A program made the position numbers and the translations under genes. Positions 12,714 through 64,000 of a stretch of 64,000 nucleotides of DNA are shown piece after piece. The notes beneath the pieces were generated by a model. It was not told the origin of the DNA. It saw only the letters and a list, made by a program, of their open reading frames with translations, and ran no database searches. Origin of the DNA: Candidatus Altimarinota bacterium (GTDB taxonomy: Bacteria > Patescibacteriota > Gracilibacteria > BD1-5 > UBA6164). Every line of letters begins with the position of its first letter. Positions within the stretch are counted from its first letter, which is position 1. The DNA lies in the NCBI GenBank assembly GCA_020631485.1, contig JAHDHC010000003.1, positions 10,792-74,791 of the forward strand, read 5' to 3'.

Positions 12714-15554
12714 ATGTCAGAATATTTGGAAGTGTTTGGGGCAAAGACTCACAACCTGAAAAACATCGATGTAAAAATTCCAAAAAATAAGATCACCGTC
12801 ATAACTGGTGTTTCAGGTTCAGGAAAATCGTCTCTGGCATTTAACACTATCTACTCTATCGGACAGCAAAAATACCTTGAGAGTCTTTCAAGCTATGCCC
12901 GTATGTTTATAGGATGAATGCAAGAGGAAGCAGAGGTAGGAGAGATAATAGGACTCTCTCCTACTATCTCTATAGATCAAAAGACGACTTCAAAAAATCC
13001 ACGTTCGACCGTAGGGACTATAACGGAGATTTTCGATTATTATAAGCTCTTATATCTCAACGTCTGAGAAAGAAGGTGTATAAAATGTTGAACTGTTGTG
13101 AAAAAAGATTCTATCGGTTCAGTTATTACATATCTTTCTACAAAAGAAGCAGGCGCTAAGTTTCTTGTAAAATCCCCTGTTACTGAAAAATATGAAAATT
13201 TTGAGCTATTGAAAAAAGATATTTTAGAGTCATGATTCATCAGGTTTTCTATAGGTGGAACTATCTATACCGTAAATGATGATATAGAAGTTACGGATCT
13301 TTCTCAGATAGACATAGTTGTAGACAGACTTCTGATAAAAGACTACTCAGACGATGCTTCTCCTGATACAAAGAGGCTTAAAGACAGTTTAGAACTTGCT
13401 TTTAAACAGTCATGAGGGATTCTTAAAATAGAGATGCTCGACGATGAAGAACATCAATTTTCCAATGTATTTGTCTGTTCAGCGTGTGGACATGTGCCTG
13501 AAAAACTCAACATATCAAGTTTTTCCTTTAATTCTCACCAATGAGCTTGCCCAAGTTGTCATGGTCTTTGAGTTAAAAAAGTATTTTTAGAAGAAAATAT
13601 TATAAATCCTAAACTTACTCTTTTAGAGTGAGCAGTAACTGCTCCGTGATTTTGAGGAGACTATTTTTTCTCACAAATAGAAAAGGTATGACGAGAAAAC
13701 GATATTTCCCTCAATACTGTCTATAGCAAACTCACACAACGAGAGAAAGATATAGTTTTATATTGAACTGGGAAAAAGGTATACAAGATAAGTTATAAAA
13801 ACGATTCAGGTATTCAAAATACCTATAATTCTCGCTTTGAAGGAGTTATCAATACCCTTTCTAGAAGGTATTTTGAATGAGGCGCAGAAAAATGACATTA
13901 TGACGATTATGTAGTAGATGTTGAATGTCCAGATTGTCATTGAAAACGTTTAAAAGAAGAGTCACTTTCTGTGTATCTCAATGATAAAGATATATGAGAT
14001 CTTGCGAGTCTTTCGGTTGAAAAAGCTCTTGATTTTCTCAGGACACTCGAGTTTAATCAAGCGGAAGCTAAGATTGTTCAAAAGGTTTTGAAAAATGCTA
14101 TTGAAAGACTCGATTTTCTTGCAGGTGTATGACTCAATTACATGACTATTTCTCGTAGAGCTGGGACACTCTCTGGATGAGAAGCACAGAGAATACGACT
14201 CGCGACGCAAATAGGGACAAAGCTTGAGTGAATTATATATGTTCTAGATGAGCCATCCATAGGTCTTCATGCAAGAGACAACAATATGCTTATAGACAAT
14301 CTTAAAAAACTCAGAGATATCTGAAATACGCTTATCATAGTAGAGCATGATGAAGATATCATGAAAAATGCTGATCATATAATAGACATATGACCATGAG
14401 CCTGAATTCACTGAGGGACACTTATTTCAGAGTGAACACTTACACATATCATCGATGATCCAAAGTCAGTGACAGGTCCCTATCTCAGTCATACGAGGCA
14501 AGTTCTTACAGAAAAATGATCAAGACCATCATTTAAGGATCTCAAAAAAAATAAAAAAGTTATAGAGATACTCTGAGCAGAAGAAAATAATCTTAAAAAA
14601 GTTGATATTACTATTCCCCTTTCAAATCTCGTAGTTGTTACCTGAGTCTCATGATCATGAAAGTCAAGTCTCGTAAATGAGATTCTCTCTAACTATCTTG
14701 CAAACTCTTTAAACAGGGCCAAAAGAAGTGTTGGGAAATTTGAGAGTATCAAGTGACTGGAAAATCTTGATAAAGCTGTAATTATCGATCAGTCTCCTAT
14801 AGGAAAGACTCCACGTTCTAACCCAGCAACCTATACATGAGTCCTCACTCACATACGTGAAGTATTTTCTATGACAGAGGAAGCACAGATTCGTTGATAT
14901 GCTCCATGAAGGTTTAGTTTCAATACTCGTCAAGGAAGATGTGAAGAGTGTGATGGTGATGGAGTAAAAAAGATAGAAATGCATTTTCTCCCACCGGTAT
15001 ATGTCGAGTGTGAGTGATGTAAATGAAAAAGATACAACAAAGAAACACTCCAGATAAAGTACAAGTGAAAAAATATTTCCGATGTACTCAATATGACAGT
15101 AGAAGAATGTCTTGATTTTTTCGCAAATCATCCAAAAATTGTCAAAGTCCTCAAAACTATAGAAAATGTATGACTTGGCTATATCAAATTGTGACAATCA
15201 AGTACTACCCTTTCAGGTTGAGAAGCCCAGAGAGTGAAGCTCTCAACTGAACTTTCTAAAAGGTCTACAGGAAAAACCTTTTACATCCTTGATGAGCCAA
15301 CAACCTGACTTCATTTTCAAGATGTTGACAGACTCTTGAAGATTCTCCATTCACTTGTAGACTCTGGAAACTCTGTACTTGTTATAGAGCACAATATGGA
15401 TGTCATAGTAAACGCGGATTACATAATAGACATGTGACCAGAATGAGGAGACAAATGATGACAACTCATGGCAACCTGAACCGTTCAAGATATCTCCAAA
15501 GAAAAAAACAGCTTCACCTGAGAAGCTATCAGGGATTATATGAGTAAGTTCTAA
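12714..15554 (+). CDS. uvrA: excinuclease ABC subunit A
   Basis: [43 protein letters not shown] at the N-term. The second Walker [10 protein letters not shown] (14643-14669), uses three TGA codons for Gly. [13 protein letters not shown]-type signatures. 946 aa. Stop TAA at 15552-15554. Confidence 0.95.
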
Positions 15555-58165: not shown

Positions 58166-58942
58166 TTATGAATTCGTACATCAAGTCCCTGTACAGCTAC
58201 AATTCACAGATACGAGTGTACCTGTATTGTCAAGTACTTGATATTCCCCTGTTCCGATAGATTTTCCAGATTCATAAATCTCTCCACAAGTCCTGTAGTC
58301 ACTATTTTGCCAAAACTCTATAAGAGGATCATTTATGAGACTGTTAAAGGTAGTACCATTTGATTGAGATGTTTCGCTTACAAAGTCATATGGTATATTG
58401 TGTCTTCCTCAATCAAATATAAATAAGTTTCTATTTGTCGAGCTTCCTCAGATCTCAAGATCTGTTGTAGAGTTTGTAGCAAGCATAATAGTTGGAAGAA
58501 TATTTTTTGCTACAGAAGAATAGTCTCATTTTAAAATAGCAATTGGATTATCTGCATTTTCTAGGCTTCAGGCTATTTGGAACTCCTGTCTTGTTGAAGT
58601 TGTAGAATAGTGATACGGTTTTTTAGTTTTAGGGTCATATACGAGCTGATCAAGAGTACTTAAAGGAACACTCTCATTCATAAGCCCCTGACTTGCTACA
58701 GCTTGTGTGTTGTGAAGAAGGGAAATACTTGATCATGGTCTTGGAAAAACTCATCTTTTTTGTTTGTAGAGTTTGAGCCCTGATGAAAGTTTTGCCACAT
58801 CGGCTTTTCTTGCTGAGTCACGAGAATCCTGGAGATTTCAGACATAAGAGTAAAATCAAATAGATGTGAGTATTACAAGGATTGTTGCAACAACAACAAG
58901 TTCCACGAGGGTGAATCAGCGAATATTTTGTACTTTTAGCAT
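58166..58942 (-). CDS. type IV pilin (prepilin with class III signal peptide), 258 aa
   Basis: MLKVQNIRG/FTLVELVVVATILVILTSIGFYSY is the canonical G-FTLxE cleavage/methylation motif. The Cys-rich C-terminus (CGEIY...NCSCTGTGC) suggests a disulfide-bonded D-region. Frame checked. Confidence 0.8.
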
Positions 58943-59052
58943 GGGGAAATATTTTTACAGTATATAAATGTGGGATTTTTGACTATTTTTTTTCAATGTG
59001 CTATTCTATAGTTTAGTATAGTGTTTTTAACTATTATTGTACAAAATCATAT

Positions 59053-59727
59053 ATGAAAAATACAAAAATAAAAAAGTTTTTTAGATTCAAACTGTGATTA
59101 TTCATTATATTAGCTTCTCTTTGAACAGTTTATGCTTCTGATTTTTTTTCATGAACTATCTTAAGTCAAAACGCAAGTTCTGTGGGGTCAAACGGATCAA
59201 ATATACAAATTATAAGTGGAGAAGAACCATGATATTGGAATGCCTGAAACAATTCTACAGTTATTTGAAACTATTTTAGATGATTTTATTACGATTCTGT
59301 TTTTTGATATTTTCAACTTGATTGGTCAGGACAAAAAGATGAAAATGTAAGTGTCGTATGATCAACAACAGCATGTTGAAACTGATACTGATATAAACTA
59401 TGAGGTTTTGCTTATAGTCCATATTATGGATTCATAGACTTTGATTATAGCAATAATATATTTGTATATTATTGTGTTGATGATAGTTCCCTTCATGGTT
59501 ACGCCTACAATGAAAATATCTGATTTCAAAACTTTGAGGGAATAGGTTTTGAGATAATAGGAGAAGTCGGAACAGTTTCTGAGGATGTTTCTGATGGGAT
59601 ATTTGTAAACGACTCTACAAAGATCAATCTAGAAAACTTCTGGGACTGAAATATTAGATCATACCTTTGATGAGATCTCATTCAATGAGAAGATGATAAA
59701 GAATCTATTTTCTACATTATTAAATAA
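59053..59727 (+). CDS. secreted aromatic/Gly-repeat protein (224 aa)
   Basis: Signal peptide MKNTKIKKFFRFKLGLFIILASLGTVYA. Repeats of the type GFYYDSVFGYFQLDW, GGFAYSPYYGFIDFDY, HGYAYNENIGFQNFEG. 18 of 30 Gly codons are TGA. Frame checked. Confidence 0.55.
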
Positions 59728-59842
59728 GACAGACATTCTAGAGCCTGCACACAGCAAATAAAAGATAGATGATCGGTTTTTTTACTTTATTTTATATTTG
59801 TGATAGTGTATATAAAAGTACATATTTTTATAAAAAATTATT

Positions 59843-62800
59843 ATGCAAATAAGGAGCCATACAAAGATAGTATCAAGTATTTTATTTTTAAGTTTCATAT
59901 TTCAGATATCAGGAATAACCTACGCGAGTGATCTTCAGGATCAAGAGGATGTGAGGACGAGAGTATTGCAACTACAACAAGTAGATGCTAATCTTCCGTG
60001 AGGAGTAGCTGAGCAGAAGTGAAAAGTTGGGACAATACTTGCAAAGCTTTTTGACGCTAATGGAAAGGTGAAACAGATATTTTTACATGAGATATTTGAT
60101 GGTCTTACATGATGAGAGTTGGTATACTACGATGATGCGAACAAGAGATTTATGAGTTCTGTTATCCGAGGAACGAATAGTGCGGTATGAATCTGAGGTT
60201 GAATACTCGCGTCATACATAGCGAATTTTACCTGAGATGTAAACATCACATGAGATCTTGATGTGGGTGGAAATATTACGGCTTCAGCACCAACTGCGAA
60301 TAACCATGTAGCGACGAAAGACTATGTAGATTCTAACTCTGGACTTTGGACAAGAAATGGCTCAAATGCGGTATATAACTATTCAGCAACAGATAGAACC
60401 ACAGTATGAGTATGAATAAATCACAATGTAAATACAACAGGATGATGGGCGAGAGAACTAAGCTTCTCAAGCAATGGAGGAAAAAGAGGAGTACTCTGAG
60501 CCTATGGATGAAATAATACCCTTAGTTATGTGTATCTCGATTCAAGATGAGGAACAGCTTCTTACAGTAACGCTCAATTTGTCCTTAGGCCTAGTGGGAA
60601 TGTCGGTATAGGAAATACCGCACCAGACACCAAACTTGAAGTAGCAGATGCAGTGAAGATCTCAGGAAATGGAGATGCGACACTCATCCTCGAAGCAGAT
60701 CAAGATAACGTAACAGAAACGGATAATCCAAGTATAGCATTTATCCAAGATGCATGAGGAGTAAACGGAAGAATCTGATATAGATCTGGGACAAATCAAA
60801 TGGAACTCATGAATCAGTTTAATGATAGTCTTCATCTTGGTACAGCAAATAATACCAGAATGACTATTGGTTGAGATGGAAATGTAGGTATTGGAATGAC
60901 GAATCCGTGAGAGAGATTGAGTGTTTCTTGAAGAATCGCGGTAAGTACAGATCCAAACTCAGATGATGATATTGGTGACAGATGATATAACGACGGACGT
61001 TATGTAAACGTCTGAGAAGCTGTAAACGGTGACACTATCACAGATGGGACAATTGATAGTTCAGAGATCCAAGATAATACTCTTACGTCAAGTGATCTCG
61101 CAAATGGATCTGTAAACTCAGCTGAAATAGTTGATGGATCAGTAAGAACTCAAGAAATACGTGATGGTACTATTACAAATACTGACATCAATAGTTCCGC
61201 AGGAATTTCTGGTACAAAAATCAATCCTGATTTTTGAACTCAGTCAATCGTAGCGAGAAACCCAAATAACTCTAATGCCTCAGCTGCATTAAATTTCGAT
61301 TGAGATGTTGCAAGAATAAGAGTATGAGGTTCAGGAGTTTGAGCTTCAAATTGACTTGATATCCAATGACCTGGTAATTCGAGTTTATTAAGAATAGAAA
61401 ATAATGGAAATCTTACTACTTGATGAACCATCCAAGCAGCAGCTCCTACGACATGAAATCATGTAACTACAAAAAGTTATGTTGATAATTTGGTACAGGG
61501 ACTTGTATGGAAAGAACCATCAGCAACAAGTGCATCAGGAACGCATGGAACTTGTACCAGTGCAAAAGAATGATGGGCTACATATAATAGAGCAGACAAT
61601 GTCATCTATGTATGTAATGGAAGTTGATGGGTAAATATCTGAACAACAGCAGCAATTCCCTACGCAACAACTACGACTGCATGAAGGATTCAGTTGAGTG
61701 GAGTATTATGAGGAACTTGGAACAACATCACACTTGATGATAACTCAATCAACAGTGAGAAAGTTCAAAACAATACGCTCACAGCAAGTGATCTTGCGAC
61801 AAATAGTGTCGGAACAAGTGAGATCGTAAATAATACGATTACAGAAACAGATATATCAGACAGTTTTGTAGCGAGAAATTCTCAGCTCCTTGATGGGATT
61901 GACAGTTCAAATTTTGTGAGAGATTCATGAAATGAAACAATAGGATGAGTGAAGACATTTTCAGAAAGTACAATTATATCTAAAAATGGTACTTCATGTT
62001 CTGGATCAAACTGTGTTACCAATTCTGCTTGAATAGCTCTAAAAGATGCATCAAATAATCAAAACGTAGAAATAGTTCATGATGTCTTTGATTCTTCACT
62101 TCCTGCTGCAGGATATGGTGTAAGAATTAGAAAAACAACTGATAACGTTCAGCAGTGAAATAACGCTATGCTTGTTGTTGAGTGAGACATATATGCCAAC
62201 AACACATCAAGAGTACTTACTAGTTGATTTAGTGGTGATGACATCCAAGACAATACCGTAGATTCTTCTGAAATCCAGGACAATACACTCACAGCAAATG
62301 ATCTTGCAAATGGATCAGTAAACTCAGCTGAGATCGTAGATGGTTCAGTTAGAACTCAAGAAATAGCAAATAATACGATTACAGAAACGGATATATCAGA
62401 CAGTTTTGTAGCGAGAAACTCACAACTCCTTGATGGAAGAGATTCAACGGAATTCGCCCAGAGAGATAATACTTCAAGCACATCTATTGGAGCTGCAGGA
62501 TGGTATACGATAGCGAGAATTCCGAGCGGAAGAGCAAGTGCAAAATTCGTAATCAGAGATACAACAAGTGGAAGACATGGAACAGTACACTTTTATGCGC
62601 AACACCACTATGGAAACGGAAATGTCATCAATGTCGTAGCAGATTCAAACTATGGAGGAAATGGTATTTTTAGATATTTGAGAATAAAAGACGCTTCTAC
62701 CTATGATGGTGCAGTGCTACAAGTATATGTAGATCAAGCAGGTTCTGTATATGGACAGATGTTTGAAAATATTCAATGACCAGGTTGGACGATTGTAGAT

Positions 62801-64000
62801 TGGGCAGCTGATGGAGCACAGACGGCTCCAAGTGAAGGATCACTCAGTGAAGCTGTGAGAATTGATCTCGATCACAATAATGGTTTCCAAACAACTGACT
62901 CACTCAATGCAAATAGTGGAATCAAGGTTGATGGAACGACTATCATAAATGGTAGTGGGAACATCGGAGGAGATGTTATCACAGATGGAACCATAGACAG
63001 TTCAGAGATCCAAGATAATACTCTCACAGCATCTGATCTTGCGGCTAATTCGGTAGGAACTTCAGAAGTTGCTAACAATTCCCTTACAGCAAATGATCTC
63101 GCGGCAAACTCTGTTTGAACTTCAGAAGTTGCTGATAATACTCTCACAGCAAATGATCTTGCGGCGAACTCTGTAGGAAACAGTGAACTTATAGACGTGC
63201 CAACTGTTGCACAGCTGAATGTAGTGGCGTGAGATAATAACGGCTTAAGGTTTTGGGGTTCAGACAATTATGAGATATCTATGGGAAATACATCAGAATA
63301 TCATTATTGACCTGTTACATGATATTCTATTAAGAATAAAATGAATAGTGATTCAACGAGATGATGGACCTGGTGAGTTGCTGGCGCTACTCCTACGGTA
63401 GCATTTAATACTCAATGAAACGCTCAGTTTGCAGGAACAATTACTGCTGCGACTCCTACTGCTGCAAACCATCTTGCGACAAAAGCATATGTAGATTCTA
63501 ACTCTGGTCTATGGTCTCAAAACGGATCTGGTGAAGCATACTATACGGCTAATGTAGGTATAGGAAATACGGACCCATGAGAGAGACTTAGTGTTACCGG
63601 AAGGATCTCAGTGACAGCTGATCCAAACAGTAATGATGATATATGAGATAGAGGCTACAACGATGGAAGATATATTAATGTATGAGAATCAGGTGATTCT
63701 ATAGCTGATAATACGATAGATGGTTCTGAGATACAAAATGATAGTATTACAGCAGCTGACCTTGCTGTAAACTCAGTTGGAAATAGTGAATTAATAGATA
63801 CACCAACATTTACGAATATACTTACGGGAAACACATGAATAAACATTATTTGAGGTTCACCAATTATGAGATATACCGATTCTTGAGCAGAGGATGATTT
63901 TTGGACACATGTAAATTCTAATAACTTTTATGTGCTGGCTGATAGAAATGATGATAGTGCTTGGGATGGACCTCATCCACTACAATTAGAAGCAGATACA
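59843..64000 (+). CDS. giant tail-fibre-like repeat surface protein, N-terminal 1385 codons (runs off the right edge)
   Basis: Frame checked 59843-64000 with no TAA/TAG. Signal peptide MQIRSHTKIVSSILFLSFIFQISGITYA. Recurrent modules PTA.NH(V/L)ATK.YVDSNSGLW and GNVGIG.T.PGERLSV.GRI (tail-fibre-type motifs), plus runs of ITDGTIDSSEIQDNTLT.SDLA.GSVNSAEIVDGSV. Confidence 0.75.

Follow-up and report, generated by a model that had tools for sequence, protein, structure and literature searches.

The 64,000-nucleotide stretch of Candidatus Altimarinota bacterium DNA analysed here (the window; its positions 1-64,000 are C20:10792-74791 of a parent contig that extends beyond the window end) closes with the first part of a very long gene, fibre gene A. 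We conclude that fibre A is probably a cellular, homotrimeric adhesion fibre built from phage tail-fibre modules and that, together with a paralogue, fibre B, it makes up the variable cargo carried by a conserved surface module of Gracilibacteria. Most likely, we infer, the fibres of this locus are tools for recognizing and holding host cells.

The gene has to be read with a reassigned stop codon. In the assembly that holds the window (1.21 Mb, 27 contigs, 34% GC, 93% complete), TGA encodes glycine (translation table 25), as shown at invariant glycine positions of UvrA, GlmS and PilB. The second Walker A motif of UvrA (window 12714-15554), GVSGSGKS, is spelled TGA GTC TCA TGA TCA TGA AAG TCA, with all three glycines as TGA, while the first Walker A motif uses GGT/GGA; this pair is clear internal proof that UGA stands for glycine. 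TGA is likewise the codon for the glycine of the GlmS MCGI motif and for the GK glycine in PilB's Walker A motif, and in alignments of the fibre paralogues TGA lies opposite G 100 times and opposite W 5 times. Two other codes were tried and rejected: under table 11 the fibre region breaks into short open reading frames (ORFs), and table 4 (TGA as Trp) is at odds with the Walker A and GlmS glycines written TGA.

With TGA as sense, the long open frame that a sequence-only reading had placed from 59843 onward was confirmed. It stays open to the window end with 56 in-frame TGA codons and, as that reading had supposed, is cut there: the frame continues along the contig to a stop at C20:75664 (window-equivalent 64873), giving a protein of 1,676 amino acids with 65 TGA codons. 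Its features within the window are the following.

59843-64000, plus strand: fibre gene A, first 1,386 of 1,676 codons, TGA read as sense
59843-59926, plus strand: Sec-type signal peptide (amino acids 1-28), predicted cleavage after TYA, called by inspection
59927-60181, plus strand: N-domain (amino acids 29-113), the presumed docking end
60287-60331, plus strand: collar motif APTANNHVATKDYVD, copy 1, found by regular expression and self-BLAST
61442-61486 and 63452-63496, plus strand: collar motif APTANNHVATKDYVD, copies 2 and 3 (copy 4 lies beyond the window)
60878-61018, plus strand: module GNVGIGxTxPGERLSV...DPNSDDDIGDRGYNDGRYVNVGE, copy 1 (copy 2 at 63548-63688)
61028-61222, plus strand: decapeptide-repeat array 1 (amino acids 396-460)
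61715-61912, 62225-62452, 62960-63217 and 63689-63832, plus strand: further decapeptide arrays
62372-62917, plus strand: non-repetitive central domain (amino acids 844-1025), also found in marine phage tail fibres

The C-terminus lies beyond the window. The sequence-only reading had suggested looking there for an S74 intramolecular chaperone, and extension of the contig revealed one: Peptidase_S74 (PF13884) at amino acids 1563-1614, with a score of 53.7 bits, where the gathering cut-off is 22 (E 2.6e-14). A six-frame search found exactly two S74 copies in the genome, both in the fibre locus, the other being that of fibre B (54.4 bits). Both carry a Ser/Lys dyad of the S-x4-K (SDxxxK-type) form, S1563-DENL-K1568 in fibre A and S1177-SRRW-K1182 in fibre B. 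When the whole of fibre A was compared with PDB sequences, the sole match was the ICA domain of MyRF (7dc3, E 0.02), in an alignment that spans the VGI...P...L element and the dyad and sets the fibre dyad opposite the MyRF ADLRAK site.

The proposed likeness to tail fibres was borne out by hidden Markov model matches that are strong and fall in several regions. Fibre A matched 11 PHROG families, most of them annotated as tail fibre or baseplate, with phrog_8215 (E 3.8e-30) and phrog_892 (E 7.2e-30, over five stretches) the best; fibre B matched 17. By tblastn, amino acids 844-1025 show 35-36% identity to tail fibres of Podophage Lau218 and the Vibrio phages KIT04 and VF16 (E 1e-17 to 4e-14), and this central domain is a candidate ligand-binding module. 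The C-terminus resembles the distal long tail fibres of T4-like cyanophages. In total, 490 of 50,697 phage records matched fibre A, each at less than 60% identity and over at most 14% of the protein. Because the matches are distant, short and many, we regard fibre A as a mosaic of phage-fibre modules and not as a phage gene copied recently.

Between its two ends, fibre A is strongly repetitive, and fragment-wise self-BLAST detected matches within the protein with E values as low as 1e-38. There are four copies of the collar motif, [AST]PTxxNHxxTKxYVD (amino acids 149, 534, 1204 and 1500), and phrog_2332 matches amino acids 135-165, over the first copy. Both motif pairs described from the letters are real and in frame: 60302-60349 and 63467-63514 (48 nt) share 85% nucleotide identity and 14 of 16 residues, while 60878-61018 and 63548-63688 (141 nt) share 72% and 38 of 47 residues (81%). 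A VGIGxxxPxxxL motif is present in three copies (amino acids 347, 1237 and 1536), with the spacing of the "capping loop" of MyRF and of mosaic adhesive trimer (MAT) fibres (PMC10769870). The periodic arrays lie where they had been placed, beginning at about amino acids 396, 625, 795, 1040 and 1283, with one more at 1395 past the window, but the period of roughly 8 residues ascribed to them did not hold. In four of the six arrays checked the strongest autocorrelation lag was 10 residues, and the unit is thus a decapeptide. Pfam Decapeptide (PF25296) matched fibre A at E 0.0039, under the family cut-off.

The front end of the protein is of another kind. In the N-terminus MQIRSHTKIVSSILFLSFIFQISGITYA/SD, the n-, h- and c-regions typical of Sec signal peptides can be made out, in agreement with the sequence-only reading, and a hydrophobic N-terminal stretch is kept in all 17 aligned members of the family defined by the adjoining N-domain. 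The consensus of this domain is ...V..(V/I)N.(I/L)Q..DP.LP.....KG..G.I....F...GKI...FL. An HMMER search with amino acids 25-145, exhaustive over 1.84 billion representative proteins, returned only 22 matches; in 20 of them the match falls within about the first 140 residues, and in the full-length proteins it directly follows the signal peptide. Signal peptide and N-domain are kept together in the 17 aligned members and in about 28 sampled homologues, of which none carries a prepilin head. Many of the 22 carry W where G is expected, a mark of UGA-recoded genomes translated with the wrong table. Database entries mistranslated with W at TGA also likely account for the sparse result of a word-indexed search with the N-domain alone, in which the paralogue was the only match. 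Among 301 sampled genomes of the class, the domain was present in 13, belonging to the window's family, its sister family and one other family. Judged by these searches, it is found only in related UGA-recoded genomes. Identity of the fibre N-terminal region between genomes is only 22-39%, and relatives that share the N-domain end in S74 or in other tips, e.g., ...CIGNCF.

An AlphaFold2 model of the N-domain built from the 17-sequence alignment is moderately confident (pLDDT 74.7) and predicts an alpha/beta fold, three helices followed by beta-hairpins. A single-sequence prediction of amino acids 25-201 was useless (pLDDT 34), and the alignment-based model was used instead. Searched with Foldseek, this model matched nothing significantly, either in the PDB (best E 4.2) or in the predicted viral structures of BFVD (best E 0.056, TM 0.31). 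None of about 135 sampled fibre homologues had a prepilin motif, which was also sought as a Rosetta-stone pilin fusion. Given the lack of a structural match and of a prepilin motif, the proximal end of the fibre is neither a recognizable virion attachment domain nor a pilin head.

The second fibre gene lies about 1 kb downstream of gene A and about 1.9 kb past the window end, with a small secreted ORF in between.

59777-60357, plus strand: 582-nt block common to genes A and B, from -66 to +515 of the ATG (blastn, 2 mismatches, 99.7%)
From 20 nt past gene A: ORF for a secreted protein of 285 amino acids, between fibre genes A and B
C20:76646-80536 (L001:8646-12536), plus strand: fibre gene B, 1,296 amino acids, S74, dyad SSRRWK, 55 TGA codons; it starts 103 nt after the 285-amino-acid ORF

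The common block runs from the promoter and ribosome-binding-site region through the signal peptide and N-domain to the first collar motif, taking in the first 171 codons. Given its near-identity, genes A and B match in promoter region, in signal peptide and over their first 171 residues. Identity drops sharply right after ...YVDSNSGLWTR, and elsewhere the genes share scattered segments at 71-88%. Downstream of gene B lies a hairpin followed by a T-run. Similar pairs occur in other genomes: one pair of paralogues (L005) has 1,119 nt in common at 88.6%, including 86 nt upstream of the ATG, another (L006) has 918 nt at 88.3%, and the closed genome CP060226 has two fibres, about 37 kb from each other, whose N-termini are nearly identical. 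Homogenization of fibre 5' ends within a genome was thus seen in four genomes, in one of them between unlinked copies. Together, these comparisons indicate concerted evolution of the fibre front ends inside each genome and divergence from one genome to the next, as would be expected if all fibres of one cell must fit one docking partner. On the L005 metagenome contig, the middle fibre gene (L005:14172-17445) is split into overlapping ORFs of 194 and 915 amino acids, which may reflect a frameshift, a repeat assembly error or a decaying paralogue.

The fibre genes are set in a cluster of genes for secreted and pilin-like proteins.

58166-58942, minus strand: type IV pilin-like gene, 258 amino acids, the first of four pilin-like genes framing the module (Pfam N_methyl E 1.1e-5, T2SSG E 1.8e-4)
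59053-59727, plus strand: secreted Gly/aromatic-rich protein of 224 amino acids, a conserved partner usually encoded just upstream of an N-domain fibre
C20:80921-83223 (L001:12921-15223): three pilin-like or minor-pilin-like genes (145 amino acids, minus strand; 209 and 385 amino acids) that close the module, their order kept in other Gracilibacteria

The neighbours named by the sequence-only reading, a pilin gene and a secreted repeat protein, are the first two of these, and the surface-structure island that it drew from 58166 to 64000 is real and larger than claimed: it extends about 8.4 kb past the window end, where the second fibre and the minor-pilin genes lie, and recurs in other genomes. 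The gene order here is pilin 258 (minus strand), 224, A, 285, B, 93, 145 (minus strand), 209 and 385. N_methyl or prepilin signatures are present in the 258-, 145- (weak) and 209-amino-acid proteins, the last with an AFTLTE prepilin motif, and the 385-amino-acid protein has an N-terminal membrane helix. In metagenome contigs and in same-family genomes, the recurring order is a 258-amino-acid pilin (minus strand), the 224-amino-acid protein, one or more N-domain fibres, small secreted ORFs, the 145-amino-acid protein (minus strand), a prepilin of about 210 amino acids and a membrane-anchored protein of about 386. Orthologues of the 258-amino-acid pilin hold the same position in other Gracilibacteria loci at 48-57% identity, and the genes that frame the module are 30-57% identical overall. 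The slot between them varies, with 0-3 fibres of 299-2,311 amino acids, and S74 is present in 20 of 61 relatives. The housekeeping flanks differ from genome to genome (hisS/CNNM in one case, glmS/serS here), and in other genomes type IV pilus ATPase and platform genes adjoin the module.

The 224-amino-acid protein had no match in Pfam, PHROG or NCBIfam. Its family, 42-54% identical across loci, was found in 16 loci of Gracilibacteria metagenome-assembled genomes labelled Candidatus Gracilibacteria, Candidatus Peribacteria or "Patescibacteria group". Twelve of these 16 have an N-domain fibre gene as the first or second gene downstream, and in two the slot is empty; the gene for the 224-amino-acid protein and the fibre gene lie side by side on one strand in at least 10 contigs. 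Of the 301 sampled genomes, 12 combine the N-domain with the 224-amino-acid family, 1 has the N-domain only, 4 have the 224-amino-acid family only and 284 lack both.

Several side observations concern the same gene families. In a genome of the same family (OZ245922.1; L011:6588-7487, minus strand, the same as L073:10704-11603), the module slot holds a mini-fibre, 299 amino acids long, in which little is added to signal peptide and N-domain apart from a single VGIG unit and S74; this natural minimal construct offers tractable material. Three S74 proteins of sister-family genomes (L008:8888-9955; L010:14165-15352, minus strand; L016:11862-12998) have another conserved N-terminus, ...AVAFFGTLGILS[VT]GYSAY..., which, unlike the N-domain, looks like a membrane anchor or a pseudopilin-like leader. 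Downstream of the module, C20:85518-86861 (minus strand; L001:17518-18861) encodes a modular pilin of 447 amino acids that opens with a long leader, has a prepilin motif and includes a Fibrinogen_C-like domain (E 1.6e-7). Its leader of about 40 residues (...SSPDKGRLGGVIAFTLVELIVVVTILAILATIG) also opens at least 4 other large pilin genes, and the SSPDKGRLGGVIAFTLVELIVVVTILAILATIG repeat may break the assembly, as two of these other genes border a contig end, one on C9 and one at the start of C20. The genome as a whole has at least 25 prepilin-type genes in 1.2 Mb, twelve of them for proteins of 430-570 amino acids and one for a protein of 1,384 (C24:28128-32282). Given this number of prepilin-type genes and the large size of many, the showing of adhesion modules on pili is a major theme of this organism.

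Taken together, these features suggest how the fibres could work. Genes A and B would be expressed from their near-identical promoter and 5' regions, and their products would be exported by Sec via a cleavable signal peptide. Outside the membrane, the C-terminal S74 chaperone would nucleate trimerization of the shaft and then remove itself by autoproteolysis at Ser1563/Lys1568, baring the distal tip, an activity suggested by K1F endosialidase, T5 pb1, MyRF and Bd3182 (reviewed in PMC10769870). After cleavage at Ser1563, mature fibre A would have about 1,534 residues per chain. The N-domain (amino acids 29-113) would hold the proximal end at the cell surface; gene order and co-occurrence point to the 224-amino-acid protein as its prime candidate partner, and/or to the four pilin-like proteins. 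By analogy with phage and MAT fibres, the shaft (collar motifs, decapeptide arrays and phage-like globular inserts) and the tip would bind surface structures of the host or prey. A homogenized 5' block with diverged distal parts would keep one docking interface while binding specificities change or multiply. Bd3182 is a 922-amino-acid precursor modelled at about 55 nm (PMC10769870); scaling from it gives fibre A a possible length on the order of 100 nm, which would be similar to the gap of about 100 nm, filled with fibres, that separates the related epibiont Vampirococcus from its host. There are two options for the root of the fibre: the envelope, as assumed for MAT fibres, or, in the manner of PilY1, a tip complex formed by the four pilin-like proteins.

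Some points weigh against this account. The signal peptide of gene A was called by eye only, and the argument for trimerization and autocleavage of the fibres runs through the domain family only. The co-occurrence of the N-domain with the 224-amino-acid family (Fisher p 2.5e-17, calculated with no correction for phylogeny) is inflated by shared ancestry. In CP060226, the module of pilin, 224, 145, 209 and 385 genes (CP060226.1:577995-598678, L058) has an empty fibre slot, and the two N-domain/S74 fibres (757 and 560 amino acids; L013/L014) lie about 640 kb away. Physical linkage of fibre and module is therefore not obligatory.

The second option for the root amounts to a different reading of the locus, which is possible but which we hold only tentatively. 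pilY1 sits among minor pilin genes. Here, the N-domain, perhaps via the 224-amino-acid protein, would dock on a priming or tip complex of the four pilin-like proteins, and the fibre would play the PilY1/PilC role of type IVa pili, with pilus retraction pulling the host in. Consistent with this, the fibre genes lie between the pilin-like genes (258; 145, 209 and 385 amino acids) in most related loci, pilus ATPase and platform genes adjoin the module elsewhere, and the at least 25 prepilin-type genes, many large and modular, indicate that adhesion modules are already displayed on pili. A pilin-S74 fusion architecture, IPR012902-IPR030392, has been catalogued (PMC8179133), and Caulton et al. raise a possible interplay between MAT fibres and type IV pili (PMC10769870). 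Against it, this is a case made from gene neighbourhood only; the fibre has a Sec signal peptide and no prepilin leader, a Pfam search of it gave no PilY1-type propeller, and there is no evident three-fold symmetric partner among four different pilins. Moreover, the N-domain fibres of CP060226 are unlinked to the pilin module, and the sister family f2 has an N-domain fibre outside it. In its fullest form, which we put forward as a speculation with perhaps one chance in a few of being right, Gracilibacteria would tip a type IV pilus with exchangeable phage-type, S74-matured trimers through the N-domain and the 224-amino-acid adaptor, retraction would reel the episymbiont onto its host, and the 5' block would serve as a recombination handle for modules from the phage pool.

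It is improbable that the fibres are instead shed, or form a fibrous coat or cell-cell spacer without specific host recognition. Such a matrix would fit the related Vampirococcus, whose fibrous coat is thick and whose gaps of 20-100 nm contain fibrous material (10.1101/2020.11.10.374967), and no LPXTG or lipobox covalent anchor is visible in the sequence. The patchy and variable occurrence of the fibres (S74 in 20 of 61 relatives, 0-3 fibres per locus, 299-2,311 amino acids) would be unexpected of a coat protein, however; the conserved N-domain and homogenized paralogues point to a specific docking interface, and the distal modules are of the kind that serves phages for receptor binding.

A prophage, tailocin or phage-remnant tail fibre without function for the cell (an ordinary prophage was one of two outcomes that, by the sequence-only reading, would overturn its interpretation) was already largely refuted and is very unlikely: the building blocks are homologous to virion tail fibres and some S74 proteins of sister-family genomes sit in other contexts, but the signal peptide precedes an N-domain without viral structural match, the pilin synteny is kept across genera with differing housekeeping flanks, both frames remain open in spite of their recoded TGA codons (65 and 55), and the best phage matches stay below 60% identity and within 14% of the length. 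The locus follows era, a DsbA-like gene, an M3 peptidase gene and glmS and precedes serS, an AP endonuclease gene, the modular pilin, trpS/tyrS, gmk and a T2SSE ATPase gene, with no phage structural or integration genes in its neighbourhood, and six-frame searches of the 93%-complete genome gave no match to TerL_ATPase (PF03354), HK97-type Phage_capsid (PF05065) or Phage_sheath_1 (PF04984).

With the cellular adhesion fibre as the preferred reading, the closest described system is the MAT fibres of Bdellovibrio bacteriovorus, S74 subgroup, e.g., Bd3182 (Caulton et al. 2024, PMC10769870). In MAT fibres, a signal peptide and an invariant N-domain precede a trimeric shaft with S74 or another tip at its end, and the fibres stand on the predator surface (PMC10769870). 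Like them, the fibres described here are chromosomally encoded and secreted, with a family N-domain at once after the signal peptide, a long phage-like modular shaft with VGxG...P...L capping motifs, a C-terminal S74 with an SDxxxK-type dyad, and several paralogues that differ distally; Bdellovibrio, too, lives on other bacteria. The N-domains set the two systems apart by description: that found here has about 85 amino acids and is alpha/beta, whereas the MAT N-domain has about 130 and is beta-rich. Among the genomes searched, ours is restricted to those of Gracilibacteria type with UGA as glycine, and it was not detected in one Bacteriovoracaceae homologue. In contrast to MAT fibres, those of this locus are tied to a 224-amino-acid partner gene and a minor-pilin cluster, in a candidate phyla radiation (CPR) organism; the related Vampirococcus is described as single-membrane (10.1101/2020.11.10.374967) and not as diderm. 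The supplementary MAT list from other predators names no CPR member (PMC10769870).

Three other comparisons are narrower. With phage fibres such as the K1F endosialidase, T5 pb1/LTF and the distal long tail fibres of T4-like cyanophages, the Gracilibacteria fibres share S74 with its dyad, a collar/decapeptide-type shaft and mosaic domain exchange, but a Sec signal and a non-viral N-domain replace the virion attachment domain, and the genes lie in a cellular pilin module outside any phage context. As in PilY1/PilC and the modular pilins (Raynaud et al. 2021, PMC8179133), a large adhesin is encoded among minor pilin genes and has a conserved proximal and a variable distal part; unlike those, it has no Pfam PilY1 beta-propeller and no prepilin leader, and is linked to the pilus by neighbourhood only. 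The VGI-x4-P-x3-L ... SDxxxK arrangement is shared with the ICA domain of MyRF (7dc3), a eukaryotic membrane-bound transcription factor, and the likeness is limited to the trimerizing, self-cleaving domain (E 0.02). We found no description of S74 or tail-fibre proteins from Patescibacteria or Gracilibacteria in the literature searched, which included Gracilibacteria and Vampirococcus papers; the sole mention is of a "tail fibre-like protein" beside an unrelated pam pilus operon in Saccharimonadia (2026 preprint, PMC13278184). NCBI labels some Patescibacteria homologues "tail fiber domain-containing protein".

We therefore interpret the locus as a MAT-like, phage-derived adhesion fibre system in Gracilibacteria that read UGA as glycine, distinguished by its own docking domain, a dedicated 224-amino-acid partner gene, a variable slot in a minor-pilin cluster and concerted evolution of the fibre front ends. 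How ultra-small CPR/Patescibacteria locate and keep their hosts is still an open question, and type IV pili are so far the only players with good support (PMC11452946). The locus offers a concrete candidate for a specificity determinant: phage-style receptor-binding fibres exported by the cell itself, with a fixed docking end and a fast-changing distal end, in the setting of a pilin cluster. It would carry the MAT principle, by which a predator is equipped with phage-like fibres, over to an unrelated phylum that uses another genetic code. Because the distal domains also occur in marine phage tail fibres, they might also help to predict the hosts of these uncultured bacteria.

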